Positions 40,016 to 54,889 of a stretch of 64,000 bases of DNA are shown here, piece after piece (the stretch's first letter is position 1; every line of letters starts with the position of its first letter). The stretch covers positions 8,827 through 72,826 of the forward strand of contig OZ242262.1 of the NCBI GenBank assembly GCA_965207145.1, in the 5' to 3' direction. The position numbers and the translations under genes are program-made. Source of the DNA: Dehalococcoidia bacterium. GTDB lineage: Bacteria; Chloroflexota; Dehalococcoidia; Lucifugimonadales; UBA2962. Below the pieces are notes generated by a model that made no database searches, was not told where the DNA came from, and saw only the letters and a list, made by a program, of their open reading frames with translations.

Positions 40016-41059
40016 CTGCAAGTGGGTTGCGGTCATAGTGCTGTCGGTGTCAGTCGGTGCAGCGTTTGCCCTCACCATCATCTTTGTCGGGTAGGGAGAG
40101 GAATTGGCCTACAGCGTTTACAGGGACGGGACACCATGCAGGGGATGGTCCACGACATCAATTGCCTCTTCACAAGCTTTCACCTCATGGAAAGCCCCAA
40201 GCCGGTGTCTTATTTCCAGGCCTCGACATGGGCACGCCGAATAGGGCAGCTATCTCTCTGCGTGGCTTCTTGCCCTGATGCTGATCAGCGCCGTCTTCAC
40301 AGTCGTCGGCAGCTGCGCCACGTTTATTCTCACCACCCAATGACATGAAGGCTATCCCCGTACTTGGACTGCTCATAGTCCGCCGCGGTTATCTATCGGA
40401 CCGCTACAACCGTGTCATGAATTTCCCTGGAACCGTGGCACCTCCGTAGATTTCTTCCACAGGTTGGAAGATCACAGGGAAATGGCGTTCCAGATCCTCT
40501 CGGCTGCTGCTCCGCCCCAGTTCGTCCGTCACCGCAAAATAACCGGTGCTTAACACGGCGAAAAGGCTCGCTGAAAGCCATTGCAACTACCGTATACGGT
40601 AAGATACTGAACTGGTGCTACAGTGCCCTTACGCTCGTTAACTGCTGGAAGACGCGCTTTATCGGTGTGGACTGGGCCGTTGCAATGTGGATCCGAGCGG
40701 ACTGACCTTTCGACGATCCTGAAGTAATACGGTCGTTCAGCTACTGCGAAAGCAACATGTCATTTGGGAGCGTCGAGAAGCGAAAGTCTGGGGCTTACCG
40801 GCCGCCCGGGCAAGAGTCTACAGACGAATGTACTGCGAATTAGGGTAGACACCTGTTCGCTACGTTGGGCAACAGCATTGGCCACACATGACGATGACAT
40901 TGACGCCATGTCGGTCCTAAAGGAGCACCCTGTTAGGCACCTAGCTTCTCCATTTGGCCGATCTTGGAAGCTTTCTGTGCCGGTAAGAGATGCTGCCATC
41001 GAGGGGCGGAAGCCTAGACTGGCACATCGCATCAAGATAGTGCATCGAGGTCAGACCTG

Positions 41060-43087
41060 ATGACTGCGTCAAAGGGTGAAACGACGATCCAATCGCTCAG
41101 CTTGACTGAAGAACTCCTCCTGATGCTCCTCAACGAGGAGAGTGGTTATTTCCACCAGGTGCCCGGATGGGACCTTAACTGCGCCGTCGTCGGTGCCGTG
41201 CTAGCGGAACTTTCACTCAGGTCTCGAATTGACACAGATCTTGAATCACTTTTTGTCGTTGACGAGACAGAAACGGGTAGACCCACACTGGACTCTATCC
41301 TGAAGGAAATCGCAGCCGAACCGGTCCAAAGGACCACGCAGTACTGGATCGAGAGGCTGGCGCCCCGCGCGGAGTCAATCATCGATTGGACTCTTGATCA
41401 CCTGGTTGACCTGAAGATTCTGGAACACCACGACGGGGAGTTCTGGACGCTGTCCCGTACTACATGGCAAGAGGGGATGTTTGGCAACTCGTCGGAGGGG
41501 ACCGCAGTCCAGTTTGTAAAGACCCGTATCAGCAACGCGATCTTCAATAACGAGATCCCTGACCCGAGGGATGTCATCATCATCTGCCTGATCAACACGT
41601 GCGACGTCTTCCGTTTCATGTTCCAGCTTGATGACGAGGCGGAGGAGCGTATTCAGTTCATCTGCAAGATGGACCTGATCGGCCGCTCCATAGCTGAAGC
41701 GGTGGCCCACAATCTGGCGGGCCCGCTGTTCCGACGTTCGGCCCTGACCAAGAAGATCCCTACCGCTTCCTTGCGCAAGATCCTGTTCAATCCTCACATC
41801 CGCAAGGGCAACATACCGGCAGTGTTCGCGGACCTTGCGCACGAGTATGGCCCGGTGTTTCAGATCCGACCTCCGTTTTCCGAGCCCATGATCGTCTTGG
41901 CGGGCTCCGACACAAATCAGTGGGTCCATCGCCGAGGTCGAATGTACCTGAGAGCGAGGGACTATTTCTCGGACTTTGAGAAAGTCTATGGCGCCGCCGG
42001 GGTGCTGCCCGCCCTTGACGGCGCCGACCATTTCCGACTGCGCAAGTCCTTATCGGCGGCCTATTCCCGCAAGAGACTGGCGGGACAGATAGACGACCTT
42101 TACGGACATGCGCGAAGGCATATGGCGCAGTGGACAGTTGGGGAGGTCTACCCAGCGACCGGCATGAGCCGGCAAATGATCAACGCTCAGATCTCGCCTT
42201 TCATGGTGGGAGTTGAGACTCAGGACATCATTGACGACCTGCTCAAGTTCAAGGAACGGGCGCTCAGCGTCCACATTATGAAGATCATGCCGAAGTTCAT
42301 GCTGAAAACTCCCGGCATGAGGCGCCGGGCGAAGTTCATCGAAGCGTTGCTCGAGCGCGTCTACAGCGTGCATACCCCCGCCCAGCGAGCCGGACGGCCC
42401 CTAGACCTGGTGGACGACTATCTGAGCCTGCATGCGAGCGATCCGCAGTTCATACCCGAATCTAACCTCAGGTTCGCCTTTACCGCGGCGCTGGTGGCCA
42501 GCGCATACCTCGGCGATGCGTTTAGCTTCACCCTGTATGCCATGGCCTCGCAGCCGGAGGTCCACGCGAGAATCCAGGCCGAGGCCGACGCCCTGTTTGG
42601 CAACGGCGATCCGAAGCCCGAGGACTTCAGCCCGTCCACGATTGATGTCACGCACCGCTTCATGATGGAGTGCATGCGCATGTACCCGGTCGTTCCGATG
42701 TCCATTCGAAACGTGATGAATTCCTGTGTGGTAGAGGACTACGAACTGCCGGTGGGTTCGAGGGTCATCATCGCCCAGACGTCCACGCATTACATGGAGG
42801 ATGTCTTTCCAGATCCCTTCAAGTTCGATATCGACCGCTATCTGCCCCCGCGCAATGAGCACCTCAGCCCCGGGTACGCACCCTACGGGCTGGGTACCCA
42901 CACATGCCTCGGCTCCCGGTGGATGGAGTTGCAACTGGCCGTCAACCTGCTGATGGTTGCGCACTACTTCACGCTTGAGGTGCTGCCGAAGAACTTCGAG
43001 TTCCGGTTTAACCCCATACCGTCGATGAAGCCGAGCAGCAGGCTGAAGTTCCGCATAACCGGGAAAAGGCGCGAACTGAGCGCTTAA
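41060..43087 (+). CDS. Fusion protein: N-terminal GPP34/GOLPH3-family domain plus C-terminal cytochrome P450.
   Basis: The N-terminal region reads LSLTEELLLMLLNEESGYFHQVPGWDLNCAVVGAVLAELSLRSRI, the GPP34 pattern. The C-terminal region has ExxR (ECMRMYP) and the haem loop APYGLGTHTCLGSRWMELQ. It is a single uninterrupted 675-aa ORF. Confidence 0.85.
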   Translation: MTASKGETTIQSLSLTEELLLMLLNEESGYFHQVPGWDLNCAVVGAVLAELSLRSRIDTDLESLFVVDETETGRPTLDSILKEIAAEPVQRTTQYWIERLAPRAESIIDWTLDHLVDLKILEHHDGEFWTLSRTTWQEGMFGNSSEGTAVQFVKTRISNAIFNNEIPDPRDVIIICLINTCDVFRFMFQLDDEAEERIQFICKMDLIGRSIAEAVAHNLAGPLFRRSALTKKIPTASLRKILFNPHIRKGNIPAVFADLAHEYGPVFQIRPPFSEPMIVLAGSDTNQWVHRRGRMYLRARDYFSDFEKVYGAAGVLPALDGADHFRLRKSLSAAYSRKRLAGQIDDLYGHARRHMAQWTVGEVYPATGMSRQMINAQISPFMVGVETQDIIDDLLKFKERALSVHIMKIMPKFMLKTPGMRRRAKFIEALLERVYSVHTPAQRAGRPLDLVDDYLSLHASDPQFIPESNLRFAFTAALVASAYLGDAFSFTLYAMASQPEVHARIQAEADALFGNGDPKPEDFSPSTIDVTHRFMMECMRMYPVVPMSIRNVMNSCVVEDYELPVGSRVIIAQTSTHYMEDVFPDPFKFDIDRYLPPRNEHLSPGYAPYGLGTHTCLGSRWMELQLAVNLLMVAHYFTLEVLPKNFEFRFNPIPSMKPSSRLKFRITGKRRELSA

Positions 43088-43116: not shown

Positions 43117-44172
43117 CTAAGGAGAGGGGCTAGGTCTAAGAGGCTTGCGCGCCAGGAAACAGTAAAGTGGCGTGAAGATCCCGGCCCTGCCGCCCGCGAC
43201 ATAGGCGTTTGCAGTCCTATCCAGCAGCCTGACGACGTCCGCAGAGCCCTTGGGAAACACGCCCAGCACCTCGGCCAGCCTGCATACCCCGACAAAAGCC
43301 TTGCGGCCCAGCGGAATCCTGTAGAGGGCGCCGCGCAGTGCTCCGTCCGGGGCTTCCATGGGTCGATACCACGGGGTGATCGAACCGTTCTCCCCGACGC
43401 CGCGGTCAATCCCCTCGATGACCTCGAATCCCGCCGCTACGAGCGACCGGTTCACCTCATCCGTCGTGGCGATTTCCTTGAGCGCTATGCCGTGCATCAG
43501 GTCCTGCTTTTTGGCCAGGTGCCCAGCATCGCTGGGGTCGAACCTGTCCGTCATGCACATCTCCTGACCCCAGAAGAGAGCTCCGGGCTTCAGCACGCGG
43601 CATATCTCGGCGAACGCTCCCACCTTGTCCGGGGCATGGCAGGTCGATTCGATCGCGTAACCGCGGTCGAACGTGTCGTCCGCGATTGCGCCCATGTCCA
43701 TGAAGCTGCACTCGAGGTAGTCGACCATGTAGTCGACCCCCGCCTCGGCGTTCAACGATTTCGCCCTGTCAAGCTGGATCTTATTGTTGTTGACCCCTAC
43801 GACCCTGGCGCCGACCTCACGGACTACACGGCGCATGGGGCCGCCTATCCCACAACCGACATCGATCACCGTCATGCCCTCGCTCATCTCCAGCTTGTCG
43901 ATCATCAGTCGCTGATGCCTGAGCTTGGACTCCTCCAGGCTCTCCCCGGGCGATAGCGGCGCGAAGTGGAGGGATTCGCCCCAGCCGAACACCATGAATT
44001 CGCCGCAAAGGTCATAGTACTCCTTGACGGTTGCTGCGTGGTCGTAGCCCGGCCCGCTAACCCCCTGCGCGGACGCCCTGTCGAGCCATCCATCAAATCG
44101 CTGCACGCGACGGGCTACGGGGGATCCCAGGTACGCGGCCTCCAGCCCTTTGCGTAGATTGCCGAGTTGCAT
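43117..44172 (-). CDS. Sterol C-24 methyltransferase (ERG6/SMT1-family) homologue.
   Basis: YYDLCGEFMVFGWGESLHFA (SMT region I), VIDVGCGIGGP (SAM motif I), YAIESTCHAP (SMT region II), VLKPGALF, EMCMTDRFDP, and the C-terminal TPWYRPME...GRKAF...LGVFPKGS...AGGRAGIFTPLYCFLARKP (Sterol_MT_C-like). Confidence 0.8.
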   Translation of the reverse strand: MQLGNLRKGLEAAYLGSPVARRVQRFDGWLDRASAQGVSGPGYDHAATVKEYYDLCGEFMVFGWGESLHFAPLSPGESLEESKLRHQRLMIDKLEMSEGMTVIDVGCGIGGPMRRVVREVGARVVGVNNNKIQLDRAKSLNAEAGVDYMVDYLECSFMDMGAIADDTFDRGYAIESTCHAPDKVGAFAEICRVLKPGALFWGQEMCMTDRFDPSDAGHLAKKQDLMHGIALKEIATTDEVNRSLVAAGFEVIEGIDRGVGENGSITPWYRPMEAPDGALRGALYRIPLGRKAFVGVCRLAEVLGVFPKGSADVVRLLDRTANAYVAGGRAGIFTPLYCFLARKPLRPSPSP

Positions 44173-44364
44173 GAGTTCCTTTCAGAACAGCTGGGCCGAG
44201 CGGACTATTCGCCTGCGACAGGGGTACCTTCGCGGGAGATTACTACCCTAGCTGCTGTCATGGTGCCGCTGCCCCAACACAGTAGCGGAGAAACGGTCAC
44301 GTTTGTACAGGGAGATTCTATCTAATTGCAGGTAGGCCCCGTCGATGGACTCACCTGCGCCCAT

Positions 44365-44595
44365 CTTTCGTTTCAATCGCTGTGACGCTGCCATATACGC
44401 TTGAGCCTGCAATCCAGGCAGATCTGTCGAAGCCCACGAGCCCACGATTCCGGAGAAAGAACGAGGGGCTCTGCTTCCATCACACGTTCATCATCTGCTC
44501 TCCACCAGTTCATAACCGGATCCTTGGCGCTAGGAGCTAGAGTGATGCTACGCACTGAAGGGTTCTACGCTCACTCACCAGCGGCCCATCACTGC
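44365..44595 (+). repeat. Copy B of the dispersed intergenic element (copy A at 25885-26105).
   Basis: See copy A. It lies between the two methyltransferase genes. Confidence 0.5.
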
Positions 44596-44709
44596 GGGCC
44601 GTTCGACCGGGCCTGAGTCCAGTCGGGGATTACCGGGATCTGTCGCACTCGTCACGCCGGCCAAGGCCGGTATCCAGGGGCCAGGCAGATCCGCGCAGGA
44701 TGAACCAAT

Positions 44710-45549
44710 CTAGTCGCCCTTCACCCCCACTGCATGCGCCCTCGCCGTTGACAGGTAGGCGTCAGGGTGCTTTGCCCACTCGCGGATGCCGCTGACCATC
44801 GACTCTAGCTCAGAGTCAGTGGTCAGGCCCAGTTCAATCGACTCCTGGAACAGCGGGACGTTCTCAATCCACGCGATGTAGATCTCGGCCGACGCGCTCG
44901 CGGCGTCCTGCCCCAACACGTGGGACATATTGGTCTCGAACTCGATGACGTCGAAACCGGCCTCACGCATGTGGGACCTCAGGAAGCGCCCTCGGTTAAG
45001 CGATCCGCCGATTCGCGTAAAGCCGCCCTCGAACAGCTCGAAGAACCTGCTCAGCTCAGGACACTCCGGCACGATGAACGGGAACGACCAGTCGGTACGA
45101 GCGACCGCTCCGACGCCGCCGGGTTTCGTGACCCTGAGTATCTCCCTCAGCGCACGGACGGGATCGGACAGGTGCTCGGTGACCGCGCTGGAAAACACGA
45201 CATCGAACTCGCCGTCTTCGTATGGCAGGTCGTAGATGTCCGCTACCTGGAACGCGAGGTTCTCCAGTCCGCTGTCGGCGGCTAGCCGGTTGGCCCGCTC
45301 GATCATCGTCGGCTCGATGTCGATGCCCACGACCCGGCCGGGCGCCACGATCTCCGCGAAACTGAGCGCGATCGGCCCCGGCCCGCAGCCGCAGTCGAGT
45401 ACGCTCTTACCCTCAGACAGGTGCGGCACTAGGAAGTCGGCGAGCCGGACTGTGTCACGGTTAGCGTAGCCCCGCTGAACTCTGGCCGAGTCGTATCCGT
45501 AGAATGGTCTTCCTCCGAACTGCGGAGTCTGTGGTACGTGTGCCGTCAT
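44710..45549 (-). CDS. Class I SAM-dependent methyltransferase (Methyltransf_11/25-like).
   Basis: VLDCGCGPGPIALSFAEIV...VVGIDIE...FDVVFSSAVTEHL...VTKPGG. Confidence 0.85.
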   Translation of the reverse strand: MTAHVPQTPQFGGRPFYGYDSARVQRGYANRDTVRLADFLVPHLSEGKSVLDCGCGPGPIALSFAEIVAPGRVVGIDIEPTMIERANRLAADSGLENLAFQVADIYDLPYEDGEFDVVFSSAVTEHLSDPVRALREILRVTKPGGVGAVARTDWSFPFIVPECPELSRFFELFEGGFTRIGGSLNRGRFLRSHMREAGFDVIEFETNMSHVLGQDAASASAEIYIAWIENVPLFQESIELGLTTDSELESMVSGIREWAKHPDAYLSTARAHAVGVKGD

Positions 45550-45736
45550 AATCGTGGTCCTATTGCTGCCTCACGGCTTCTCGTATATTTGAGCGCGGTG
45601 CCTGTTGGACTCGGTCTCGGTGCGCCCGCCTGACTGATGCTACCCTGATACAGGCTGATTTGGAGGATGGGTTCTTCGATAGGTCGAGTTACGGCGTGCT
45701 CAAGGACAACATGGGCGGCGTCTGACTCTTTGGTGG

Positions 45737-46306
45737 GTGGAGGTACGATCGGTGGTGAACGCTAATCGCGGCTGTCGCTTAAGCATCGCCGGGAAAGTAC
45801 TGTTCCCGCTGCTAGCCGGGACCATCGTCGCTATCCTGTCCTGCACCGGCGAGCCGGGCAGTTCTTCGACACAGATGACCGTGGTTCCATCCATCACCCC
45901 GGTCCCTACAGTCCCCAAGGATGTTCAGGGGTGCGCCGTAGGCCCAAACGCGGAGTGCCCGGGCGCCAGATTCGATGGACAGGACTTCAGCGAGATTCCT
46001 TCAGTCCAGGGTGGTGGCTCCAGGGGCCGGGAAGCGGCCGATTTCTCCGGGTCTACCCTCGAGGGAGCCAGCTTCGTGGGCTCCAATCTCGAAGGGGTGT
46101 TTTTTGAGGGGGCGAACCTGCGCGACGTGGACTTTCAGGATGCCAACCTCAGAGGAGCCTCCTTCTATCAGGCCGACCTGTCAGGGTCCGACTTCACCGG
46201 TGCAGACCTCGAGAACGCTGACATGGAGGATGCGATATTGCAGGGAGTCATTTACTGTCGCACCAAGACTCCTGATGGCTCCGTTAGTGACAGGGATTGT
46301 CCCTGA
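45737..46306 (+). CDS. Pentapeptide-repeat lipoprotein.
   Basis: The lipobox reads VAILSC. It is followed by ADFSGSTLEGASFVGSNLEGVFFEGANLRDVDFQDANLRGASFYQADLSGSDFTGADLENADMEDAIL. Confidence 0.8.
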   Translation: MEVRSVVNANRGCRLSIAGKVLFPLLAGTIVAILSCTGEPGSSSTQMTVVPSITPVPTVPKDVQGCAVGPNAECPGARFDGQDFSEIPSVQGGGSRGREAADFSGSTLEGASFVGSNLEGVFFEGANLRDVDFQDANLRGASFYQADLSGSDFTGADLENADMEDAILQGVIYCRTKTPDGSVSDRDCP

Positions 46307-46579
46307 GTTCCATAGAGCGTGAGGGCGGAGACGGGTGAATCGCCATGAGCAATCTCTGGCGGAGGCCAGAGGTGCACGGTCGAGTCTGGCTCGAGCGATG
46401 CCGACGGATTAACGAGAAAGGCCACCGCTAGTGAACGAGTTTCCTCGTCGCTGCACGGGGAATCCACGCGGTTGTGCGTTCTGCGGGAGCAGACTCCTGC
46501 ATGAGAGAATGCAGACCATATGCTTGGCTTAGAGTACGAGTGCTCCAGAGGTTGGAGATGAGGATCACGGTTTTTTTCC

Positions 46580-46939
46580 TTGATTGCGGTGGGGCTAACC
46601 GTGCTGGCGATAGCGGCGTGCGGAACGGAGGAATCTCGCCCTCAGAGGCTATACGACTTTTACCAACACGAGAGAGAATCTAATCCCACCCGATTGGCCG
46701 CGCGAATTGCGGCCGAAGAAATGCGCAAGTTTTCGGGCCACATAACGAACATTGACGGCCCGAAGGTTCAATTCCACCCTGACGATCGGATATCGCAACG
46801 GGATCGGTATATCGAGTGCCGGTTCGCTGATCTGGAATCCGTTTCGCAACTGGACACGGGCCAGTACATCACTTTGTTCGGAAGACTCGTCCGCGCCGAC
46901 CACATAATCGTCTTCGACGATTGCACCGTCGCCCAGTGA
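46580..46939 (+). CDS. Hypothetical lipoprotein. The start is uncertain; see the T7-tract finding.
   Basis: The TTG start gives LIAVGLTVLAIAACGTEES (lipobox IAAC). An ATG at 46558 with an AGAGG RBS would supply a proper MRITVF n-region if the T7 run at 46571-46577 were T6. Confidence 0.55.
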   Translation: MIAVGLTVLAIAACGTEESRPQRLYDFYQHERESNPTRLAARIAAEEMRKFSGHITNIDGPKVQFHPDDRISQRDRYIECRFADLESVSQLDTGQYITLFGRLVRADHIIVFDDCTVAQ

Positions 46940-47225
46940 CAGACCTTCCCTTCCTTCAGTTGATATAGCCGCGATCCGGCGTCAGTGGCCCCAGGTCGAT
47001 CATTGGCGGTGGGTCCGATTGACCACGTCGCGGCCTGACGATTCCCTGAGGCCAGACACATCGCCGGATTCGCCGGCCAAAGGGCACGGCCTGGGCATCA
47101 ACGACCCGCCACCCGGCCACAGACGGTGGCGCCAATGCCTGACCGTCGGTTGGTATGGAAACTATCAACGCCACCTGTTACCCTCGCTGCTCAGCAACGA
47201 GCATGGTGAAGGACACATAAAGGTC

Positions 47226-47876
47226 GTGTTGCGCACCCTGACTGGCAGACCGGCACTGCTTGCTCTGGCCACGTGTTTTTCTGTGGCCGCTCTGCTCGTC
47301 GGCTGTGGAGGGGAGACTTCCGGGACAGAGAGCCCTACCTCCCGGCCGGTTTCCACACCTACAGTCACGACCATCTCGGAGGAAGCCCAACAGCCTGAGC
47401 CAACGGCCGTTCCAACGACACCGCCTACCCAAATGGCGCTGGAGGTCGGGCATAAGGCGGGACAGAAAGCCCCGGACTTCATGCTGACCACCGTCGAAGG
47501 TGAGCAGGTCAGCCTGAACAGCTTTAGTGGTCGCCCACTACTCCTCTACTTCTACACCACCTGGTGACCAACCTGCCGTGCCTCGTTGAGGCACCTTAAG
47601 GAAGTTCAACCCGAATACGCGGATCGCGTGGGAATTCTTGCGGTGAACATAGACCCGCTGGAGACCGCCGAACAGATCCTGGCCTACAAGCAATCCGAAG
47701 GGTTCGTGTGGCCAATGACCGTGGCTGATGTGCAGGTTGTAAGGAACTACAACGTCACCCGCCAGGCCGCCTACGTCACTCTCGATTCAGACGGCGTCGT
47801 TTCGACCAGCGTCACCTACGGTAGTGAGACCGCTGAGGATTGGCGAGAGCTTTTCGAAGCCCTGCTGGATTCCTGA
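47226..47876 (+). CDS. TlpA/ResA-like thiol-disulfide oxidoreductase lipoprotein with an in-frame UGA at the first redox Cys position (candidate selenoprotein, UxxC).
   Basis: ORFs 47019..47567 and 47586..47876 are in the same frame, separated only by the TGA at 47565-47567. The joined sequence is APDFMLTTVEGEQVSLNSFSGRPLLLYFYTTW-U-PTCRASLRHLKEVQPEYADRVGILAVNID..., so the UGA sits exactly where the WCxxC Cys is expected. The GTG at 47226 gives the lipoprotein signal ...AALLVGC. Confidence 0.75.
47578..47594 (+). other. SECIS-like hairpin 10 nt downstream of the UGA.
   Basis: GTGCCTC-GTT-GAGGCAC is a perfect 7-bp stem with an apical loop starting GU. The loop begins 18 nt after the UGA. Confidence 0.6.
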
Positions 47877-48161
47877 TCACAGTTGCCGCCCCCGTAGTCT
47901 GGCCACGCCTGCGGCCCCTTTACGGTGTCAGATTGGGTGGGTAGGCCGCCCCGATCCCTTTTGCAGCGATTAATCGCCTACACCAGGCGAACACCTAGCC
48001 TCCGATCGGGAGTTCGTTTTTCCTGTTGTTGTCGGGCCTATTGCAGGAACAGCCGCTCGAAACGCCGCATGAGCCTGACTTTGGCGGTCGGCACTGCCAC
48101 TTTGCCACCGATAGCCGCTGCAGGGCAGGCAGTGCCGGTCCCGCACGGCCCAGGACCGTAT

Positions 48162-49217
48162 TTAGGCGGCCGGGGTGTCAGAATCGCTGGGGTCGGGATA
48201 AAACTGGGCGCAGTAGGCTCTAAATGGCATGAGCTCACCGTCGGAACGGCATAGGCGCGGGCGAGACTGATATTGCTTGCGACTCCAGATGAGCACGTCC
48301 TGTAGCACATCCTTTTCTTGCTGGGCGGCCATGAACTTGTTCATGATGGGCGCGCGCATCCCCACCGGGAGAAATCCGAGGCCCAGTATCCACCGCCTGG
48401 GGTTACGAATCTCCCGCACCTGACCTACCAAAGACATGTCGATCAGCGTGCCGTCGACGGGCGTCGCCAGTATCCACAGGCGCAGGTCCATGCCGATGGA
48501 GTGCTCGCGGATCTCCACGTACGAGTAGCCCAGTCCATAGATTCGCGTCCTCGCCGATATATTGAACGTTAGGCTCGCAATGCCTGCGATCGAGCGCGTT
48601 CTGGTGAAGTCGAAATCGCTTTCGAGAAGGTGTCCGTCCACGGACACGGGGTCGACGCGGTTTACGCCGTCGTAACCGTGCACGTACCGCAGGTGCGCCA
48701 GGTCAACCGAATTCTCCGTAGTCTCCTGAGGATGCCCGGGAAAACGGATGGTCTTGATATCAAGATCGCTCCAACCAGTTTGATCAGGCGACTCCGCGGG
48801 CAGGCTCCACTGGGGCGGCCTTCCCCGGATTCCCCACCACGCGAAGATCAACCCGGCTATTTCCCGTGTTTCGAAGACCCGCAGCCTTGCGAATTTCGGC
48901 GGAGGGGAAAAGGGAGTGGCAACGCATTGGCCCGTGGCATCGAACTCATAGCCATGAAAGGGACACACGAGCCGACCATCGCACACCCTCCCCCCTGCCG
49001 CAGGCCCCAGATCGGCACCAAGGTGAGGGCAAAAGGCCCCGGATACGCAGACTCGCCCGTCTTCATCGCACCAGACTATGATGCTCTCGCCCATCCAGGT
49101 CTTTTGGATGAGCTTCTCCCTCGAGATGGCCCGACGACTTGTAACGAAATACCAGCCCTCAGGGAAAGGGGAAGCTAGCGGGGCGTCAGCGGGCGCCTTA
49201 TAACGGGTTGCTATCGT
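48162..49217 (-). CDS. Rieske [2Fe-2S] non-haem-iron oxygenase (KshA / cholesterol-desaturase-type architecture). The N-terminus extends upstream of the first ATG.
   Basis: CPHLGADL...CPFHGYEF (Rieske) and ENSVDLAHLRYVHG (mononuclear iron). The reading frame stays open 41 codons upstream of the ATG at 49094 and encodes ...PFPEGWYFVTSRRAISREKLIQKTW, the first strands of the Rieske domain. Confidence 0.8.
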   Translation of the reverse strand, partial: TIATRYKAPADAPLASPFPEGWYFVTSRRAISREKLIQKTWMGESIIVWCDEDGRVCVSGAFCPHLGADLGPAAGGRVCDGRLVCPFHGYEFDATGQCVATPFSPPPKFARLRVFETREIAGLIFAWWGIRGRPPQWSLPAESPDQTGWSDLDIKTIRFPGHPQETTENSVDLAHLRYVHGYDGVNRVDPVSVDGHLLESDFDFTRTRSIAGIASLTFNISARTRIYGLGYSYVEIREHSIGMDLRLWILATPVDGTLIDMSLVGQVREIRNPRRWILGLGFLPVGMRAPIMNKFMAAQQEKDVLQDVLIWSRKQYQSRPRLCRSDGELMPFRAYCAQFYPDPSDSDTPAA

Positions 49218-49329: not shown

Positions 49330-51816
49330 CTAAGGAGTGCTCGGCTGATCCTGACCGTGACGCCGGTGCACATCCTCAATGGCCTCGTCAAGGTCGCTCC
49401 ACATGCGTTCGACCATGGAGCGCAGCCGCATGTTCTGGTACGCGCCCCAGACGACCATCGCGGGCAGCACCACCAGGATGGAGACTATGAGGGAGTAGGC
49501 GATGGTGATGGTCGCCGTGATACCGAACTGCTGTGACGCAAGCAGGGGCGAGGCTATCAGCACCCCGAATCCGAACGCCGTCGTCAGCGCCGAGCCCATC
49601 AGCGCCGAGCCCGTGGTAGCCAGGGTCCGCACAGCCGCTTGCTCCGGGTTGCGCAGACGGGCGAACTCCTCCCGGTAGCGATGAATCACGTGGATGGTGT
49701 AGTCCACCCCGATTCCGATCGACAGCGCCGTGATGATGGAGGTGACCAGGGTGTAGGGAATGTCCAGCAGCGCCATCGTACCCAGCACGCTGATGAGGAC
49801 GAGCACTATCGGCCCCACCGCAACGAGCCCGAGCATGGGCTGGCGCAGCGTCACCCAGAAGAAGATGGTGAGGATGCCCAGTGCAACCGCTACGGTGACA
49901 CTAATCGACTCCGTCTGCCGTCCGGTGATCTGGTCCGTGACCGCGATGGCGACGATGCTGCCCGAGGTCGCCGTGATGGCGCTGTCGTCGCCGGACCAGA
50001 GCGCCTCTATCTCCTCCTGTATCATCCCCGTTCCCTTGGGATCGCCCTGGTAGGTGGGGAACTGCAGCAGCAGCGTATCGACCCCGTCCGGATCGTTAAC
50101 GAGGAAGCGCGCCAGGTGGGGTTCCAGGTCGACAAGCCTGTCGATGACCTCCTGCATCAGTTCTCGATCGAGGCCCACCCCAACGGAGGCTTCCCGGTAG
50201 AGAGCCGCAAGCTCGGGGTCGTAGTTGTCTCCGGGCTCTCCTGTGTCTTCTACCCAGTCGCTCAGTGCCGAGTAGTACGAAGCCTGGATCGGTCCTGCCG
50301 CCTGGGGAGGACGGCGCGACTCGTCCTCAAATGCGGCCGTGAGATCCTGAAGATTCAGGAGCGTGCGTGTCTCGGTAGCCTCGGCCTTGACCACTACGCT
50401 GGTGAGCTCCGTAGAGCCTCCCACGGCTGCTTCGAGCGTTTCCATGTCCTCCAGCACGCTCCCACCCCGGGGCAGGATGTCGCGGATGCTGAATTCGGAC
50501 TTCAGTCCCGTTGCGGCGAACCCGAGCCCGACGGTCACCGCTATGACGCAGACCAGATAGGGCGCGGGCCAGCGTGTTACCGATCGCCCCAGCCGCTCCG
50601 CCAGCAGCGGGATGCCGGGCAATGCGTTAGAGATCGGTCGCGCGGGCGGCAAGGTGCCTCGTGCCTCGCGCCGCCGGTCTATGATGGTTCGTCCGGCCGG
50701 GATCAGGGTCAGCATCACTATCAGGCTCAATCCCACGCCCAAGCCCGCGACGATGCCGAAGTCGCCAATCACCCCTATCGGGGAGAACAGGCTCGCCAGC
50801 AGGCTCACAATTGTCGTGACGGCGGCCAGGGTTAGCGGGATCGTGACATTGCGCAGCCCCGTGCGGACGGCCGTCAGGACAGGCGCGCCTGCGGTTCGCT
50901 GCTCGCGGTAGTGGGACACGGCCTGAATGGCATAGTCCACCGTGAGGCTGATGAGGATCACGGGCACCATGGCGGTGAGCGAGCTGGGAGGGCCAATCGC
51001 TCCCAGCGCCTCCGGCCCGAGCCAGCCTTCCGCCCCGACAACCCAGATTATCGAGAGGATGAGGCCGAGCAGCGTTAACAGCGTATCCGAAATGGCGCGC
51101 GTAAAGAGCAGAAGCAGCGCTGCGATCAGGAGCAGCGCCAGGCCTATGAGCGGTGCCATACCCGACTCGGTGGCCTCCTTGTACTCGTCCTCGATGATCA
51201 CCGGGGATAGGCTGCTCACGTCAAGGGGGCCGTCATCCGCTGTAGCGAGGTCGCTGATCGCTCGTTCGGCGTCCTCGATTCGCTCGTCACCGGTGTCGAT
51301 CAGGCTTATGGTGGCGATCCCAACCGGCTTGCCGTCCTCGTCCTCTCCGGTCAGCGCGGAGAATGCCTCCTGCAACTGCGGCGTCCCGACCACGGAGTCG
51401 ATCTCTGCCTGCGTGACCGAATCGAAGCCGTCGACCCGGAGCACAGACTTGACCAGCGAAGTCGGGGCGGCGACGGGATCACCTGCAACCAGTAGCTCAC
51501 GAACGCCCTGGTCACTCTCGATCTCACCTAGCAGCGCGTCCATCTGAGAGAGCCCGTCGGGAGTGAGCACATCTCCGCGGAACACGAGCGTGGCAACGCT
51601 CACATCGCCCGAGTCGGCGAACGACGCCTCTATCTCCTGCGTCGCCGCAGCAACGGCGTGCCCGGGCGGAAGGAACGCCAGGTCGGCTCCTTCCGTGGGA
51701 GGGGCGCGCATCGTCACGCCCGCGCCAAGCAAGACTGTTACGGCGAGAAGGACTAGGAGCGTGACGTACGGGCGGACCGTGATCAGCCAGCTCAGCCTAT
51801 CGAGTACCTGGCCCAT
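49330..51816 (-). CDS. MMPL/RND-superfamily transporter (HpnN-like architecture).
   Basis: 828 aa with two blocks of about 6 TM helices, each preceded by a large soluble loop. The sequence texture is typical of MMPL proteins (…LSIIWVVGAEGWLG…, …GIGVDYTIHVIHRYREE…). Confidence 0.85.
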   Translation of the reverse strand: MGQVLDRLSWLITVRPYVTLLVLLAVTVLLGAGVTMRAPPTEGADLAFLPPGHAVAAATQEIEASFADSGDVSVATLVFRGDVLTPDGLSQMDALLGEIESDQGVRELLVAGDPVAAPTSLVKSVLRVDGFDSVTQAEIDSVVGTPQLQEAFSALTGEDEDGKPVGIATISLIDTGDERIEDAERAISDLATADDGPLDVSSLSPVIIEDEYKEATESGMAPLIGLALLLIAALLLLFTRAISDTLLTLLGLILSIIWVVGAEGWLGPEALGAIGPPSSLTAMVPVILISLTVDYAIQAVSHYREQRTAGAPVLTAVRTGLRNVTIPLTLAAVTTIVSLLASLFSPIGVIGDFGIVAGLGVGLSLIVMLTLIPAGRTIIDRRREARGTLPPARPISNALPGIPLLAERLGRSVTRWPAPYLVCVIAVTVGLGFAATGLKSEFSIRDILPRGGSVLEDMETLEAAVGGSTELTSVVVKAEATETRTLLNLQDLTAAFEDESRRPPQAAGPIQASYYSALSDWVEDTGEPGDNYDPELAALYREASVGVGLDRELMQEVIDRLVDLEPHLARFLVNDPDGVDTLLLQFPTYQGDPKGTGMIQEEIEALWSGDDSAITATSGSIVAIAVTDQITGRQTESISVTVAVALGILTIFFWVTLRQPMLGLVAVGPIVLVLISVLGTMALLDIPYTLVTSIITALSIGIGVDYTIHVIHRYREEFARLRNPEQAAVRTLATTGSALMGSALTTAFGFGVLIASPLLASQQFGITATITIAYSLIVSILVVLPAMVVWGAYQNMRLRSMVERMWSDLDEAIEDVHRRHGQDQPSTP

Positions 51817-52118: not shown

Positions 52119-52562
52119 TCAGCGGGCTGGCGACGCCGGCGGGAGGGTGACGATGGTCAGCCAGAAATCCTCGATGGAATTAACCACCTTGACGAACTGG
52201 TCCAGGTCCAGTGGCTTTGTGATGTAGCAGTTGGCGTGCAGGTCGTAGGTGCTAAGCACATCATCTTCGGCCTGCGAACTGGTGAGGACCACCACAGGTA
52301 TGCGCTTGAGCCCATCGTCGCTCTTCATCTGAGCCAGGACTTCCCTACCGTGCTTTTTCGGCAGATTCAGATCCAGCAGAACCAGGTCGGGCAGTCTTTC
52401 GGCGCCGGTCAATATCTCCATCGCCCGCTCTCCATCGGACGCCACGACCATATCGTTCCGGACCTTGGCATCGCGCAACGCCTCTTGGGCAAGTCGGACG
52501 TCGCCCGGATTGTCCTCGACCATCAGTATGTGGATGGGCCTGCCGAACCGGGAATCACTCAA
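52119..52562 (-). CDS. Stand-alone response-regulator receiver (CheY-like).
   Basis: IHILMVEDNPGDVRLAQEAL...PDLVLLDLNLPKKHG...PVVVLTSS...ITKP. The TTG start overlaps the kinase stop (cTTGagTGA). Confidence 0.85.
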   Translation of the reverse strand: MSDSRFGRPIHILMVEDNPGDVRLAQEALRDAKVRNDMVVASDGERAMEILTGAERLPDLVLLDLNLPKKHGREVLAQMKSDDGLKRIPVVVLTSSQAEDDVLSTYDLHANCYITKPLDLDQFVKVVNSIEDFWLTIVTLPPASPAR

Positions 52563-54375
52563 GCTGCAGTCCCCCAGAGCCGTTGACCGAGGCCGGCATC
52601 GTGAACCAGAAAGTGGAGCCTAGTCCGGGCTCAGACTCGGCCCAGATTCTTCCCCCGTGCCTCTCCACGATCTTCTTGGCTATCGCAAGACCTATCCCGG
52701 TCCCCGGGTATTCGCTCCTCGTCTGAAGCCGTTGAAACACTCCAAATATCCTGTCCGCAAACTTTTGCTCAAAGCCTATTCCATTGTCCTTTACACCGAA
52801 GAGCCAGTGCCCTTCCTCGGCCACCGCCGACACCGAGACCTTCGGGCGATCCTCGCCCCGGTACTTGATGGCATTGCCGATCAGGTTCTGGAAGACCAGC
52901 TCGAGCTGGCCCGGATCGGCGTTTACCTCGGGCATCTCTTCGAAGATGACGCGGGCCTCCGTCTCGTCGATCAGAACCTGAAGGTTCTCGAGCGCTCTGG
53001 CGAGCGCGGCCCGGCTGTCGGTGGGAACAAGTTCACCGCCCCGGGTGCCCACGCGGGAAAAGGCCAGCAGGTCCTGGATGAGCTGCCTCATCCTCTCGGC
53101 TCCGTCGACGGCGAAATGAATGAAATCGTCAGCATCGGCGTCCAAACGGCCCTGGTACCTGCGCTCAAGCAGCGTTACGTAGCTGGAGACCATCCTCAGG
53201 GGCTCTTGCAGGTCGTGCGAGGCTACGTAGGCGAACTGCTCAAGGTCGGCATTGGAGCGCCTGAGCTCATCGTGGGTACTCTGCAGCTCGGTCACCAGCA
53301 GGCTGGTAGCCACCGCCCCGGCAACCTGGTCTCCGACCAGGCACAAAAACTGCAGATCTTCCTCCGAGTACGCGCCTTCTGCCTTGGACGCGACGGTCAG
53401 AAACGCCACCGTCTCGTGCATGGACAGCAGGGGAACGGTGATGATGGATCGGAATCCGGCTTCCATGCTCTCCAGCTCCCCGGGCAGGACGCCGGATTGC
53501 ACGATTTCCCCGGTCAGGTTCCAGATGCCGGCCCCGCCGAGCAGGGCCTGCTCCTCGGTGGTGCCCTTCATGGGCATGTCCTGCCAGGAGGCCCAACTCC
53601 CCGGAATGTCCTCTCCGCTCAGGTATGCAACACGGATGGTGTCCTTGGCCCCTCCAAGGACGGTGACGTTGATCCTGTCCACCGAAACCCTCTCGGCCAC
53701 CGCGGCCGCGAACTGCCTGTAGACATCGTCCATGTCGGAGGTGGACGTCACGATCCTGCCGATACGGGCCAGCAGGTCCCTTTCCCTCACCATCTCGCCG
53801 AGCCGGGAGACCATCGCCGAGTTGTAGAGTGCGCCCGAGATCTGGTTACCTACCTCCGTGGCCGACCGGAGATGGTCCTCGGTGTAGGCGTTTAGAGATC
53901 TTGACCGCAGCGTGAGAACCCCAATGACCTCCCCCCTGTAGAGCAGGGGAACCGAGATCTTTGATCTGAACCCGGCCCGGTAGTGCAGAGCCTCGACGCT
54001 GTACTCACCCGCCAGCCTCTCGTATTCATCTCCGCATGCAACCAGCCCCCTTTGCGATCTGGCCACGAGGAGCGCGGTCGTATCGTCCAGACGTCTGGTG
54101 GCGGCCCCATCCAGCTCCTGGGGCCCTGCACCGGCCACGTGGGAGTTGATCACCTCGTTGGACTCAAGGTCCAGGGTGGAGATGCTTATCCTGTCGAACG
54201 GGATAAGCCGGGCCACCGTGGAGTCGAACTGCTGGTAGACATCACCGATGTCATGCGTCGACGTGACTATCTGGCCGATCCGGGCCAGTTCCGCGTAAGC
54301 GACCCCGGAACTGGGTTGACCGGCGCTAGAGAGATCAGTACCCGGGCTCTCGTTCGGCCCTGGAGTGTGGGCCAT
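52555..54375 (-). CDS. Cytoplasmic sensor histidine kinase (GAF-GAF-HisKA-HATPase_c).
   Basis: The H-box is FAYVASHDLQEPLRMV, the N-box is NLIGNAIKY and the G-boxes are GIGFE / GTGIGLAIAKKIVERHGGRIWAESEPGLGSTFWF. The two N-terminal units of about 160 aa are GAF-like. No TM segment is present. Confidence 0.9.
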   Translation of the reverse strand: MAHTPGPNESPGTDLSSAGQPSSGVAYAELARIGQIVTSTHDIGDVYQQFDSTVARLIPFDRISISTLDLESNEVINSHVAGAGPQELDGAATRRLDDTTALLVARSQRGLVACGDEYERLAGEYSVEALHYRAGFRSKISVPLLYRGEVIGVLTLRSRSLNAYTEDHLRSATEVGNQISGALYNSAMVSRLGEMVRERDLLARIGRIVTSTSDMDDVYRQFAAAVAERVSVDRINVTVLGGAKDTIRVAYLSGEDIPGSWASWQDMPMKGTTEEQALLGGAGIWNLTGEIVQSGVLPGELESMEAGFRSIITVPLLSMHETVAFLTVASKAEGAYSEEDLQFLCLVGDQVAGAVATSLLVTELQSTHDELRRSNADLEQFAYVASHDLQEPLRMVSSYVTLLERRYQGRLDADADDFIHFAVDGAERMRQLIQDLLAFSRVGTRGGELVPTDSRAALARALENLQVLIDETEARVIFEEMPEVNADPGQLELVFQNLIGNAIKYRGEDRPKVSVSAVAEEGHWLFGVKDNGIGFEQKFADRIFGVFQRLQTRSEYPGTGIGLAIAKKIVERHGGRIWAESEPGLGSTFWFTMPASVNGSGGLQLE

Positions 54376-54391
54376 GGTTAGCGAACCCTGC

Positions 54392-54889
54392 CTATCCGAA
54401 AGGCCACCACCAGCGCCTTCTGGGAGCGGCGGGCGATTCTGTAACCGAGACCTCAGCGGGCTGCTCGGCCTCCCTCTCCGAATAGGACCGCAGAGTCGTC
54501 ATTGTCACGTCGAAGCGCGCGACGTTGACTGGCTTTCTCATGAAACGCGAAGGCGAGATCCCATACGACTGGAGCATGCTGCCCTCGGCGGAAGTCCCGG
54601 TCAGCACGACGACAGGTATGTGACGCAGTCCCTCGTCCTTGTTGATCTCGGCCAAGACCTCTAGGCCGGATCGCTTTGGCAGCTGCAGGTCGAGGAGAAT
54701 CAGCTCGGGAGAGAGCGTATCGGCGAACTCGCCCTCCTTGCGGAGGCGTGACAGGGCTATTTCACCATCCTCGGCGACGCTGACGCTCACCTCATACTTG
54801 GAGTCCTTCAGCGCTTCCTGGGTAAGTCGAGCGTCACCGGGGTTGTCCTCGACAAGAAGCACCTCGACTGTTCCCTCTTGTTCCTCCAT
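54392..54889 (-). CDS. Stand-alone response-regulator receiver with a WWWPFG tail; first gene of the RR-HK-RR operon.
   Basis: MEEQEGTVEVLLVEDNPGDARLTQEALKDSKYEVSVSV... differs at only 2 of the first 72 residues from the 23964..24476 product. The tail ends ...PRRRWWWPFG. Its stop is 16 nt before the kinase ATG. Confidence 0.9.
   Translation of the reverse strand: MEEQEGTVEVLLVEDNPGDARLTQEALKDSKYEVSVSVAEDGEIALSRLRKEGEFADTLSPELILLDLQLPKRSGLEVLAEINKDEGLRHIPVVVLTGTSAEGSMLQSYGISPSRFMRKPVNVARFDVTMTTLRSYSEREAEQPAEVSVTESPAAPRRRWWWPFG

Follow-up and report, generated by a model that had tools for sequence, protein, structure and literature searches.

The oldest chemical evidence for animals is taken from side-chain-alkylated steranes (24-isopropylcholestane and 26-methylstigmastane), and the argument hinges on which organisms hold which sterol methyltransferases. 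Bacterial sterol methyltransferases (SMTs) from sponge symbionts have already been published (Kelly et al., 2022, PMC9531527; Brown et al., 2023, PMC10070321). In Ircinia symbionts, steroid clusters contain ERG24-CYP51-LSS flanked by SMT (Kelly et al., 2022, PMC9531527). The substrates assayed by Brown et al. were desmosterol and 24-methylenecholesterol only (PMC10070321). No functional SMT, yeast SMT and plant SMT1 and SMT2 included, departs from F89 and T78, and the docked sterol side chain lies less than 5 Å from residue 81 in 8 of 8 models (Brown and Welander, 2025). In propylating (24-isopropyl-forming) SMTs, Gly249 is necessary, together with Phe81 and/or Phe83 (Brown and Welander, 2025). 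A different family, GPP34_L, is reported to be exclusive to sponge symbionts, spans many phyla and has been proposed to be a PI4P-binding phagocytosis effector; that study makes no mention of sterols, methyltransferases or MMPL transporters (PMC11706023).

Here we analyze an SMT-family gene from a Dehalococcoidia bacterium in its genomic context. The whole stretch of DNA that was analyzed, 64 kb in length, is referred to as the window.

A divergent member of the ERG6/SMT superfamily

A first-pass annotation had described the gene at 43117-44172 as a bacterial homologue of eukaryotic sterol C-24 methyltransferase, naming no strand. We find the 351-residue open reading frame on the minus strand, and all the sequence blocks cited in that annotation are present in the protein:

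43117..44172, minus strand: divergent-clade SMT-family methyltransferase, 351 aa; ATG-started open reading frame with Methyltransf_11 and Sterol_MT_C (Pfam)
43960..43989, minus strand: Region I (sterol-binding), FGWGESLHFA, residues 62–71; bears F89L, with M81 and G78 just upstream
43837..43866, minus strand: Region II (SAM-binding), IDVGCGIGGP, residues 103–112; intact, with D125, G127, G129, G132 and P133
43630..43659, minus strand: Region III, YAIESTCHAP, residues 172–181; E195 retained
43534..43659, minus strand: Regions III and IV together; Region IV reads GQEMCMTD, with the clade-specific Y223Q and W225M
43534..43563, minus strand: EMCMTDRFDP block, residues 204–213
43141..43311, minus strand: Sterol_MT_C domain, residues 288–344 (Pfam PF08498)

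The proposed search with PF08498 detects Sterol_MT_C at residues 288–344 (E 4.7e-16; 59.1 bits against a curated cut-off of 21.7). The domain scores above the gathering threshold and lies C-terminal to a class I SAM methyltransferase domain (Methyltransf_11, 61 bits, residues 103–200), which places the protein in the ERG6/SMT superfamily. The characteristic residues of the superfamily are also present: DVGCGIGGP, corresponding to the DxGxGxxGP SAM motif, E195 in Region III and G217 in Region IV. The C-terminal blocks PWY, FTP and ARKP are found at residues 267–269, 333–335 and 341–344. Taken together, the Sterol_MT_C domain and the motifs are far above chance level. An NCBIfam search of the protein gave no equivalog model above threshold, and a PDB sequence search returned generic methyltransferases only (e.g. 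MitM) and no true SMT structure.

Compared with ten orthologues, the gene has dN/dS values of 0.13–0.27 and is therefore under purifying selection. These values and the intact motifs rule out a decaying pseudogene or dead enzyme. Scans for promoters and terminators around the SMT gene, and an Rfam scan of the whole 64-kb window, found nothing.

Phylogeny and distribution

To place the protein we used a neighbor-joining tree, a distance method only, built from 113 sequences and supported by 100 bootstrap replicates, with MAFFT L-INS-i alignment of a 119-sequence subset. The window protein belongs to a divergent clade with 100% bootstrap support, which lies outside yeast ERG6, rice SMT1, grass SMT2, and the protist and canonical bacterial SMTs. 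Thus, the phylogeny proposed in the first-pass annotation gives a divided answer: the protein is within the Sterol_MT_C superfamily but outside the clade of characterized SMTs, at 100% bootstrap.

Relatives of the gene are numerous. Over 2,100 database clusters give a match. A close relative is encoded by the representatives of at least 550 GTDB species, mostly Dehalococcoidia but from at least six phyla. These numbers contradict the earlier statement that bacterial SMTs are rare. All metagenome matches (89/89) bear sponge-metagenome contig names; the clade is present in Aplysina and Petrosia metagenomes. Between phyla, dS within the clade is only 0.6–0.8, and the gene is mobile and horizontally transferred. 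We conclude that this is a distinct clade of paralogues that is spreading horizontally and is to date found only in sponge-associated bacteria; the Dehalococcoidia bacterium behind the window is itself most likely a symbiont.

Residues in the sterol side-chain pocket are substituted

We compared the protein with the set of 25 residues that every functional SMT shares, using the list of Brown and Welander (2025) and a MAFFT --auto alignment of 272 sequences. The residue numbering was validated in 30/30 cases and by exact reproduction of the published ERG6 identities. The window protein retains 23 of the 25 residues; the deviations are T78G and F89L, of which F89L is invariant across the clade. 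Y81M, F89L, Y223Q, W225M, E246M and others are found at ≥93% in 121 clade members and at <8% in 55 canonical SMTs. Y81 is present in 98% and W225 in 95% of these canonical SMTs, and neither occurs in any clade member.

The blocks that had been taken as hallmarks of ERG6/SMT1 enzymes are, in fact, noncanonical. The canonical signature is Y/F81-x-Y/F/W83-GWGxSFHF in Region I with Y-E-W in Region IV; the window protein reads M81-V-F83-GWGESLHF and Q-E-M, with F89 replaced by Leu, T78 by Gly and Y81 by Met. As judged from the alignment, the aromatic residues lining the sterol side-chain pocket have been substituted in the clade, with the SAM site and the catalytic scaffold intact. Because these pocket aromatics are exchanged (Y81M, F89L, Y223Q, W225M), we infer that the enzyme does not perform the usual first methylation, at C-24, of sterols of the desmosterol type. 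Propylation is not predicted either, since position 249 is Ile throughout the clade and the window protein combines Phe83 with Met81.

Coexistence with canonical SMTs and the assayed clade member

Canonical and divergent SMTs co-occur in some genomes. They are encoded side by side at six loci, where the two members of a pair are 40–45% identical, and far apart on at least two further chromosomes. Among the chromosomes listed, matches to both types coincide on three (3,396,024, 3,394,821 and 2,186,624 bp). As the divergent SMT coexists with a canonical SMT in one cluster, we argue that it catalyzes a non-redundant reaction.

One of these pairs includes a protein that has been assayed. The divergent SMT at L105 (10001-11035) shares 69.6% identity with the window protein and 35.159% with ERG6. 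On the basis of its sequence it corresponds to gene JGIcombinedJ30088_100008359, 'A. aerophoba 10000835 2 of 2' of Brown et al. The neighboring SMT, 42.357% identical to ERG6, is the propylating '1 of 2' gene: its identity to the published DNA is 97% in a frameshift-tolerant alignment, whereas plain tblastn gives a misleading 57% on the OCR-damaged published sequence. JGIcombinedJ30088_100008359, the sole assayed member of the clade, showed no activity on desmosterol or 24-methylenecholesterol (Brown et al., 2023, PMC10070321). In the supplement to Brown and Welander (2025), the row labels of the tested-SMT alignment include a 'No activity' group. The inactivity of the assayed member could reflect weak expression, the lack of a partner or a substrate other than a sterol.

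It could also reflect the choice of sterol if the protein were an ordinary C-24 methyltransferase whose preferred nucleus differs, such as lanosterol, cycloartenol, zymosterol or another 4,4-dimethyl or 14-methyl intermediate. We consider this unlikely, but a possibility to be weighed. Cycloartenol is the preferred substrate of plant SMT1, and zymosterol that of yeast ERG6. The retention of Sterol_MT_C and of 23/25 functional residues is in keeping with such an enzyme, as is the sterol 24-C-methyltransferase label given to relatives by NCBI and IMG, and Brown et al. tried no sterols beyond the two named. However, the clade-specific changes fall in Regions I and IV, which touch the side chain rather than the nucleus, and F89 and T78 are invariant in functional SMTs irrespective of their native substrate. 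Moreover, a canonical SMT is already present in the same cluster, pointing to a non-redundant reaction, and the tree places the window protein apart from all canonical SMTs.

The first-pass reading as a bacterial sterol C-24 methyltransferase is therefore retained for the superfamily, with its Sterol_MT_C domain, but not for the activity. C-24 methylation of ordinary Δ24 sterols is not established for the window protein and is somewhat disfavored, because the motifs are noncanonical, the protein is placed outside the canonical clade and the tested member is inactive on desmosterol and 24-methylenecholesterol.

The SMT belongs to a module with a GPP34-P450 and a lipid transporter

The genes surrounding the SMT are as follows:

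40592..40759, plus strand: FAD amine-oxidase-like remnant, 56 aa; tblastn 41% identity to residues 401–455 of L033:5098-6495
41060..43087, plus strand: GPP34-P450 fusion, 675 aa; Pfam GPP34 at 15–216 and p450 at 247–645; convergent with the SMT, 29-bp gap
44173..48161, no strand: lineage-specific insertion of ~3.9 kb that splits the module; only in the window, L001 and L002
44710-45549, minus strand: generic class I methyltransferase within the insertion (Pfam)
45737-46306, plus strand: pentapeptide-repeat protein within the insertion (Pfam)
48162..49217, minus strand: Rieske [2Fe-2S] oxygenase with KshA-type catalytic domain (Pfam Rieske and KshA_C)
49330..51816, minus strand: RND lipid transporter, MMPL family, 828 aa (Pfam MMPL 151, Sterol-sensing 43 and Patched 33 bits)

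We define the module by a Region I signature of the type xFMVFGWGESLHFAPL, an adjacent GPP34-P450 gene and an RND transporter. In its canonical layout the RND gene is directly upstream of the SMT, and full versions add an LppX-like lipoprotein and an MFS protein. About one-third of loci carry the SMT without any module gene. The window locus has the divergent signature and the adjacent GPP34-P450, with the MMPL and Rieske genes present but displaced by the insertion. The insertion, which also contains an AhpC fragment, is outside the conserved module; its methyltransferase was considered as a pathway partner and rejected, as it occurs in only 4 of 81 loci.

In 64% of 91 loci the GPP34-P450 gene lies no more than 6 kb from the SMT, at a median gap of 40 bp. 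It adjoins the SMT also in the deepest clade member, P0125, and is the ancestral partner gene of the divergent clade. Its closest PDB relatives are CYP51 enzymes. The ExxR motif and the heme-thiolate loop are conserved, and the acid-alcohol pair of the I-helix is absent from the protein.

An RND gene of any kind lies within 6 kb in 63% of the 91 loci, with a median gap of 32 bp for MMPL, and the partner type varies among MMPL, MMPL2 and AcrB. The transporter has a membrane bundle resembling a sterol-sensing domain, and its PDB relatives are MmpL4/5, Patched-1 and HpnN. The Rieske gene, present in 49% of the loci, has 3-ketosteroid 9-alpha-hydroxylase KshA as the best PDB match of its product. 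We rejected an assignment to SdmA, the C-4 demethylase, as the protein is 24% identical to L105 SdmA and has KshA_C, not VanA_C. The module showed no redox partners for either the P450 or the Rieske protein.

The FAD oxidase is linked in 26% of the 91 loci, with an intact FAD amine-oxidase-like gene in 35 loci. In the window lineage this gene has decayed to the remnant listed above. In the same lineage the module is split by the insertion and the Rieske gene is without a normal start codon: its first ATG is at 49094, and the conserved N-terminus continues in frame to 49217 with no ATG, GTG or TTG.

The association with GPP34 raises the question of whether the locus serves host interaction, with GPP34-mediated PI4P binding and phagosome evasion as its true function and the SMT as a passenger or as a regulatory or non-catalytic protein. 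The GPP34-P450 has been reported only in sponge symbionts and proposed as a modulator of phagocytosis (PMC11706023), the SMT clade is equally restricted to sponges, and its assayed member was inactive. Against this, conservation is strict at the SAM-binding and catalytic positions, with dN/dS of 0.13–0.27, and the P450 retains its heme-thiolate loop and ExxR. The linkage to RND, Rieske, FAD oxidase and LppX-like lipoprotein genes also resembles a lipid pathway, not a secreted effector. We regard a passenger role as highly improbable.

Relation to sterol synthesis

At L105, L106 and L033, the module is located beside SMO-OSC, CYP51, ERG24 and SdmAB, and some module loci also hold a canonical SMT with a de novo sterol cluster. 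An oxidosqualene cyclase (OSC) is within 10 kb in only 3 of 161 loci. With the L105 cluster proteins as tblastn queries, no OSC, ERG24 or SdmB was detected in the 64-kb window, the only matches being weak ones to paralogous P450 and Rieske genes. The SMT-bearing chromosomes do not overlap with the best 120 OSC matches, a set that does not include L033's own OSC. For all four partners, the nearest characterized relatives (CYP51, KshA, Patched and HpnN) are proteins that act on sterols, steroids or hopanoids.

These data bear on whether the substrate is instead an isoprenoid or another lipid olefin that is not a sterol, for example squalene, a polyprenoid or a hopanoid-like lipid. There is precedent in Botryococcus braunii, in which TMT-1, TMT-2 and TMT-3 are SMT-like and act on squalene and botryococcene. 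The remodeled sterol pocket, the inactivity of the assayed member on sterols, the absence of nearby OSC genes from most loci and from the window, and the presence of the lipid exporters HpnN and MmpL among the relatives of the transporter would all fit. On the other hand, the partners resemble the steroid enzymes CYP51 and KshA, several genomes have the module directly beside complete sterol clusters and canonical SMTs, and the C-terminal sterol-methyltransferase domain is well conserved. A non-sterol substrate thus seems to us improbable.

Proposed function

The best explanation, in which our confidence is evenly balanced, is that the protein is an active SAM-dependent C-methyltransferase, a divergent sponge-symbiont paralogue that would act on a different sterol or steroid intermediate. 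The divergent SMT would methylate a tailored intermediate that is made or pre-modified by the CYP51-like GPP34-P450, the KshA-like Rieske oxygenase and, in many genomes, the FAD oxidase. The adjacent RND transporter would subsequently carry the product to the cell envelope, assisted in full modules by the LppX-like lipoprotein and the MFS protein. In genomes that have a canonical SMT and a de novo sterol cluster, the divergent enzyme would add a non-redundant tailoring step. We infer the sterol substrate, the order of the steps and the export. Weighing against this explanation are the inactivity of the assayed member, the rarity of OSC genes close to the SMT, the loci that have the SMT but no module gene, the lack of redox partners in the module and the disrupted module of the window lineage.

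A more specific version, which we consider very unlikely, is that the clade consists of sterol side-chain methyltransferases with a new regiochemistry, for example at C-26 (C-27, C-28) of 24-alkyl Δ25(27) or Δ24(28) sterols. The substrates would be sterols such as (epi)codisterol, made by the neighboring canonical SMT, and the GPP34-P450, Rieske and RND proteins would form a tailoring and export line for 26-methyl sterols. If so, symbionts would supply 26-methyl sterols including aplysterol in Aplysina, petrosterol precursors in Petrosia and precursors of the 'sponge' biomarker 26-methylstigmastane. The presence of the clade in Aplysina and Petrosia metagenomes, its coexistence with canonical SMTs and its altered side-chain pocket are compatible with this version.

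The divergent SMT apparently represents an SMT-like family that is highly abundant in sponge microbiomes, with a pocket unlike that of any SMT of demonstrated activity, and the relevance to the sterane-biomarker debate claimed for this gene at the outset is upheld. Depending on the identity of the substrate, either symbionts add alkylation patterns to sponge sterols, or counts of 'SMT homologues' in metagenomes overstate bacterial C-24 methylation.

Comparison with known systems

Like yeast ERG6 and plant SMT1 and SMT2 (EC 2.1.1.41 and 2.1.1.143), the window protein has the class I core, Sterol_MT_C, and Regions II and III; its identity to yeast ERG6 is 33%. It differs from these enzymes in belonging to a separate clade, in the substitutions Y81M, F89L, T78G, Y223Q, W225M and E246M, in the lack of an N-terminal extension and in its bacterial hosts.

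The functional bacterial SMTs, such as the propylating JGIcombinedJ30088_1000083511 and the Chlamydiae SMT, share the superfamily and the sponge-symbiont habitat, and a functional SMT is sometimes encoded next door to the divergent one in the same cluster. The window protein is, however, only 42–46% identical to them. At positions where they keep F89, T78 and Y/F81, and the propylating enzymes G249, it has L, G, M and I. The closest assayed protein, JGIcombinedJ30088_100008359, is in the same clade, has the Region I signature EFMVYGWGESLHFAPL and is followed by a GPP34-P450 gene; unlike the window, it has a full de novo sterol cluster next door, in a genome that is probably that of a Nitrospira-like symbiont. 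The triterpene methyltransferases of B. braunii are also SMT-family enzymes with a pocket changed for another olefinic isoprenoid, but they are eukaryotic.

The Ircinia clusters resemble the window-type module in being restricted to sponge symbionts of many phyla, under purifying selection, horizontally transferred and enriched in SMT genes (PMC9531527). They encode a de novo pathway, whereas the module is a different gene set that is usually elsewhere in the genome. Finally, the 675-residue neighbor of the SMT has an architecture identical to that of the GPP34_L proteins, GPP34 joined to a cytochrome P450 (PMC11706023). In contrast to the effector proposal, the GPP34-P450 is here the tightest partner of an SMT within a module that resembles a lipid pathway. 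A sponge-exclusive protein is now tied to a gene set for lipid tailoring and export, which offers a testable alternative to a phagocytosis effector.

A divergent clade of sterol methyltransferase relatives

The gene under study lies in the window as follows:
43117-44172 (-): window SMT, 351-aa open reading frame with an ATG start

The motifs that the first-pass annotation quoted from this protein are all present where it had placed them, and at the level of the superfamily its assignment to ERG6/SMT is correct. A class I methyltransferase domain (Methyltransf_11, 61 bits) precedes a Sterol_MT_C domain (PF08498) at residues 288-344, which a Pfam search detects at 59.1 bits (E 4.7e-16) against a curated cut-off of 21.7.

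Bacterial SMTs had also been called rare, which does not hold here. When 5.8 billion proteins were searched by word index, 2,116 matched the window SMT at E<=1e-10; the best 120 of these are 72-96% identical, 343-373 aa long and all carry PF08498. Scanning one genome per species, we found a relative in at least 550 GTDB species. The best 80 (71-92% identity) come mostly from Dehalococcoidia/Chloroflexota MAGs, the other hosts being Acidimicrobiia, Dadabacteria, Binatia, Alphaproteobacteria and Thermodesulfobacteriota. The closest among the GTDB matches listed, L002, is a 2.7-Mb Dehalococcoidia chromosome with 92% identity and the flanking genes of the window, which makes a Dehalococcoidia bacterium the most likely source of the window. 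In the JGI metagenome records (241 million), relatives are encoded by 89 stretches, every one on a contig with a sponge-metagenome name (prefixes LXNI01, LXNJ01, MKWU01, JGIcombinedJ30088 and Ga02090xx/Ga02095xx/Ga0209754); Brown et al. label LXNI, LXNJ, JGIcombinedJ30088, Ga0209021, Ga0209754 and Ga0209544 as Sarcotragus, Petrosia and Aplysina. SMTs of sponge symbionts are already published: their genes are enriched and lie near horizontally transferred steroid gene clusters (Kelly 2022, PMC9531527), and the enzymes can be functional (Brown 2023, PMC10070321).

Neighbour joining on 113 sequences and 339 columns, with 100 bootstraps, unites the window SMT, its relatives and the deeper members P0122, P0124 and P0125 (56-42% identity) in one clade with 100% bootstrap, which the longest internal branch parts from all other sequences. 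On the opposite side fall yeast ERG6, rice cycloartenol-C24-MT, grass SMT2, Cladosporium ERG6, a protist SMT and canonical SMTs from sponge symbionts. The phylogeny suggested in the first pass places the protein outside the side holding yeast ERG6, plant and canonical bacterial SMTs (100% bootstrap), still inside the Sterol_MT_C superfamily. The window SMT belongs to a paralogue clade that is abundant, restricted to sponge symbionts and spreading horizontally.

The side-chain pocket and an assayed clade member

Twenty-five residues, in yeast numbering, are kept in every SMT active in vitro (Brown & Welander 2025 preprint). Our ERG6 reference sequence passed 30/30 position checks against that preprint, and identities calculated with it agree with two published values to two decimal places, so we consider the numbering sound. 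In a 272-sequence alignment, the window SMT keeps 23 of the 25 residues, deviating at T78 (to G) and F89 (to L). M replaces Y81, classically the residue of Region I that contacts the side chain, and position 249, where propylation requires Gly, is I. Each of 120 close relatives has F89L and I249, and nearly all have M81. Set against 55 canonical SMTs, the 121 clade members compared show 13 clade-specific positions, four of which are lost pocket aromatics (Y81M, F89L, Y223Q, W225M); E246M, near position 249, is also clade-specific, and the SAM motif is unaltered.

Six loci carry two adjacent SMT genes, one with the canonical Region I DFYEYGWGRSFHFAPR and one with the divergent signature EFMVFGWGESLHFAPL, 40-45% identical within a locus. 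L105 and L106, Aplysina metagenome contigs, each have both. Their canonical SMT is 97.2% identical (318/327 comparable codons) to the OCR-damaged published DNA of "A. aerophoba JGIcombinedJ30088_10000835 1 of 2". According to Brown's Supplementary Data 1, that contig encodes two SMTs, which are 42.36% (gene 11) and 35.16% (gene 9) identical to ERG6, and downstream of both an SMO-OSC fusion, CYP51, ERG24, sdmA and sdmB. The L105 SMTs are 42.357% and 35.159% identical to ERG6 (BLASTP), and its neighbours agree with Brown's contig gene for gene and in order (Pfam). The enzyme "2 of 2", gene JGIcombinedJ30088_100008359 (Brown supplementary table), falls in the "No activity" group (Brown & Welander 2025 supplement); its canonical neighbour "1 of 2" is propylating, with three methylations (Brown et al.). 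The more specific first-pass claim, a rare bacterial C-24 SMT, is not supported; the clade is abundant, its pocket is altered, and the member assayed was inactive. An ordinary C-24 SMT that prefers another nucleus appears unlikely.

A recurrent gene neighbourhood

When all ORFs of 161 related loci were clustered without bias, a module emerged with the recurrent order [LppX-like lipoprotein] [MFS] [Rieske] [RND] SMT> <[GPP34-P450] [Rieske] <[FAD amine-oxidase-like]. Its genes in the window, and those of an insertion that splits it, are:
40592-40759 (+): 56-aa FAD oxidase remnant, 41% identity to residues 401-455, just upstream of GPP34-P450
41060-43087: GPP34-P450 fusion, 675 aa, convergent with the SMT, 29-bp gap
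44710-45549: generic class I methyltransferase (insertion)
45737-46306: pentapeptide-repeat protein (insertion)
end of ORF 47019-47567: truncated AhpC/TSA fragment (insertion)
48162-49094, from the first ATG: KshA-type Rieske oxygenase, ~4 kb upstream of the SMT
49330-51816: MMPL-type RND transporter with a sterol-sensing-like domain, ~4 kb upstream of the SMT

Table. Module partners within 6 kb of the SMT in 91 loci with at least 6 kb on either side
GPP34-P450: 64%, median gap 40 bp
Any RND transporter: 63%
MMPL: 49%, median gap 32 bp
Rieske oxygenase: 49%, median gap 2,492 bp
FAD oxidase: 26%, median gap 3,349 bp

GPP34-P450 follows the SMT even at P0125, the deepest clade member (42% identity). 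The RND partner varies by genome (MMPL, a second MMPL type or AcrB), an argument that selection acts on the link to transport as such. The 3.9-kb insertion (44173-48161), which separates the SMT from the Rieske/MMPL genes, is common to the window, L001 and L002 only. In the same three loci the FAD amine-oxidase-like gene, intact in 35 related loci, has decayed; its remnant lies in the part of the window with the lowest GC.

Among solved structures, the P450 domain is closest to CYP51, the Rieske protein to 3-ketosteroid 9-alpha-hydroxylase KshA, and the transporter to MmpL4/5, Patched-1 and HpnN. ExxR and the heme-thiolate loop are retained in the P450, but the I-helix acid-alcohol pair is missing. 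We rejected the C-4 demethylase SdmA as an identity for the Rieske protein (24% identity; KshA_C instead of VanA_C domain). The Rieske N-terminus (PFPEGWYFV...) is encoded in frame at 49095-49217 (-), before the first ATG and back to a TGA stop. This segment contains no ATG, GTG or TTG, the codons following the stop being ACG ATA GCA; L001 and L002 share the situation. Translation either begins at a rare start codon or yields a protein truncated at the N-terminus.

Directly past the MMPL gene lie a GAF-domain histidine kinase and response regulator (52555-54889, -), kept in the closest relatives only (4 loci) and therefore probably outside the module. In some Dadabacteria-type loci (L035, L043, L083, L135), a fusion of an NAD-binding 3-beta-HSD-like domain with DUF2867 adjoins the SMT (for example L035:11170-12633, -), making it a further steroid-type enzyme linked to the clade.

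"Long-form" GPP34 + P450 proteins have been described as monophyletic, confined to sponge symbionts and spread over many phyla, with a proposed role in PI4P binding that blocks phagosome maturation (Microbiome 2025, PMC11706023). The words "sterol", "methyltransferase" and "MMPL" occur nowhere in that paper, and we found no paper linking the fusion with the SMT paralogue in the literature searched; the module is a gene set previously unconnected there.

Links to sterol synthesis and other window features

An oxidosqualene cyclase lies within 10 kb of the SMT in 3/161 loci, and none is present in the 64-kb window. A canonical SMT query identified 3 chromosomes with both paralogues, with the copies far apart in 2/3. 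Sponge-symbiont sterol clusters encode squalene monooxygenase and oxidosqualene cyclase as a single fused protein (~1,113-1,179 aa; L105:4360-8022, L106:2438-6100, L033:15427-19236 and the best 120 database matches). The fusion matches 503 database clusters at E<=1e-30, and Brown's Supplementary Data 1 assigns ERG1 and ERG7 to one gene.

A second cytochrome P450 (14429-15733, -, 434 aa) stands in an unrelated context and is 28% identical to the L105 CYP51 over 235 aa; near it, at 26-30 kb, is a betaine/sarcosine-type cluster with sarcosine-oxidase-like and homocysteine S-methyltransferase genes. A 1,966-aa open frame (1-5898, -) runs past the window start and contains eleven 339-bp tandem repeats (1-3838, 71% GC). 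Its ten Calx-beta domains and LapA domain (Pfam) indicate a giant adhesin-like repeat protein. Rfam gave no family at gathering score across the window.

Proposed function, selection and transfer

The conserved SAM site, purifying selection (dN/dS 0.13-0.27 against ten orthologues) and rebuilt side-chain pocket point to an active methyltransferase, as do the coexisting canonical SMTs, the steroid-type partners and the SMO-OSC/CYP51/ERG24/SdmAB cluster sometimes adjacent. The same selection and SAM site weigh against a non-catalytic passenger in a host-interaction locus, which the proposed phagosome role of GPP34-P450 could accommodate and which we regard as very improbable. Methylation of a non-sterol isoprenoid would also suit a rebuilt pocket; beside steroid-type partners it seems a doubtful reading, though less so than the passenger. 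We give roughly even weight to the proposal that the divergent SMT methylates a non-standard sterol or steroid. Its substrate would be distinct from standard delta-24 sterols; the P450 and Rieske partners would probably make or modify it, and the product would pass to the RND/LppX export system. The function has a direct bearing on the debate over sponge sterane biomarkers and is testable with existing assays.

Between the window SMT and copies in Acidimicrobiia, Dadabacteria, Alphaproteobacteria and Thermodesulfobacteriota, dS is 0.61-0.81, far below saturation between phyla, which implies recent horizontal transfer. Judged by these substitution rates, the divergent SMT is a working, mobile gene. 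Kelly et al. (PMC9531527) inferred horizontal transfer for the steroid cluster genes too, in agreement with the result for the divergent SMT.
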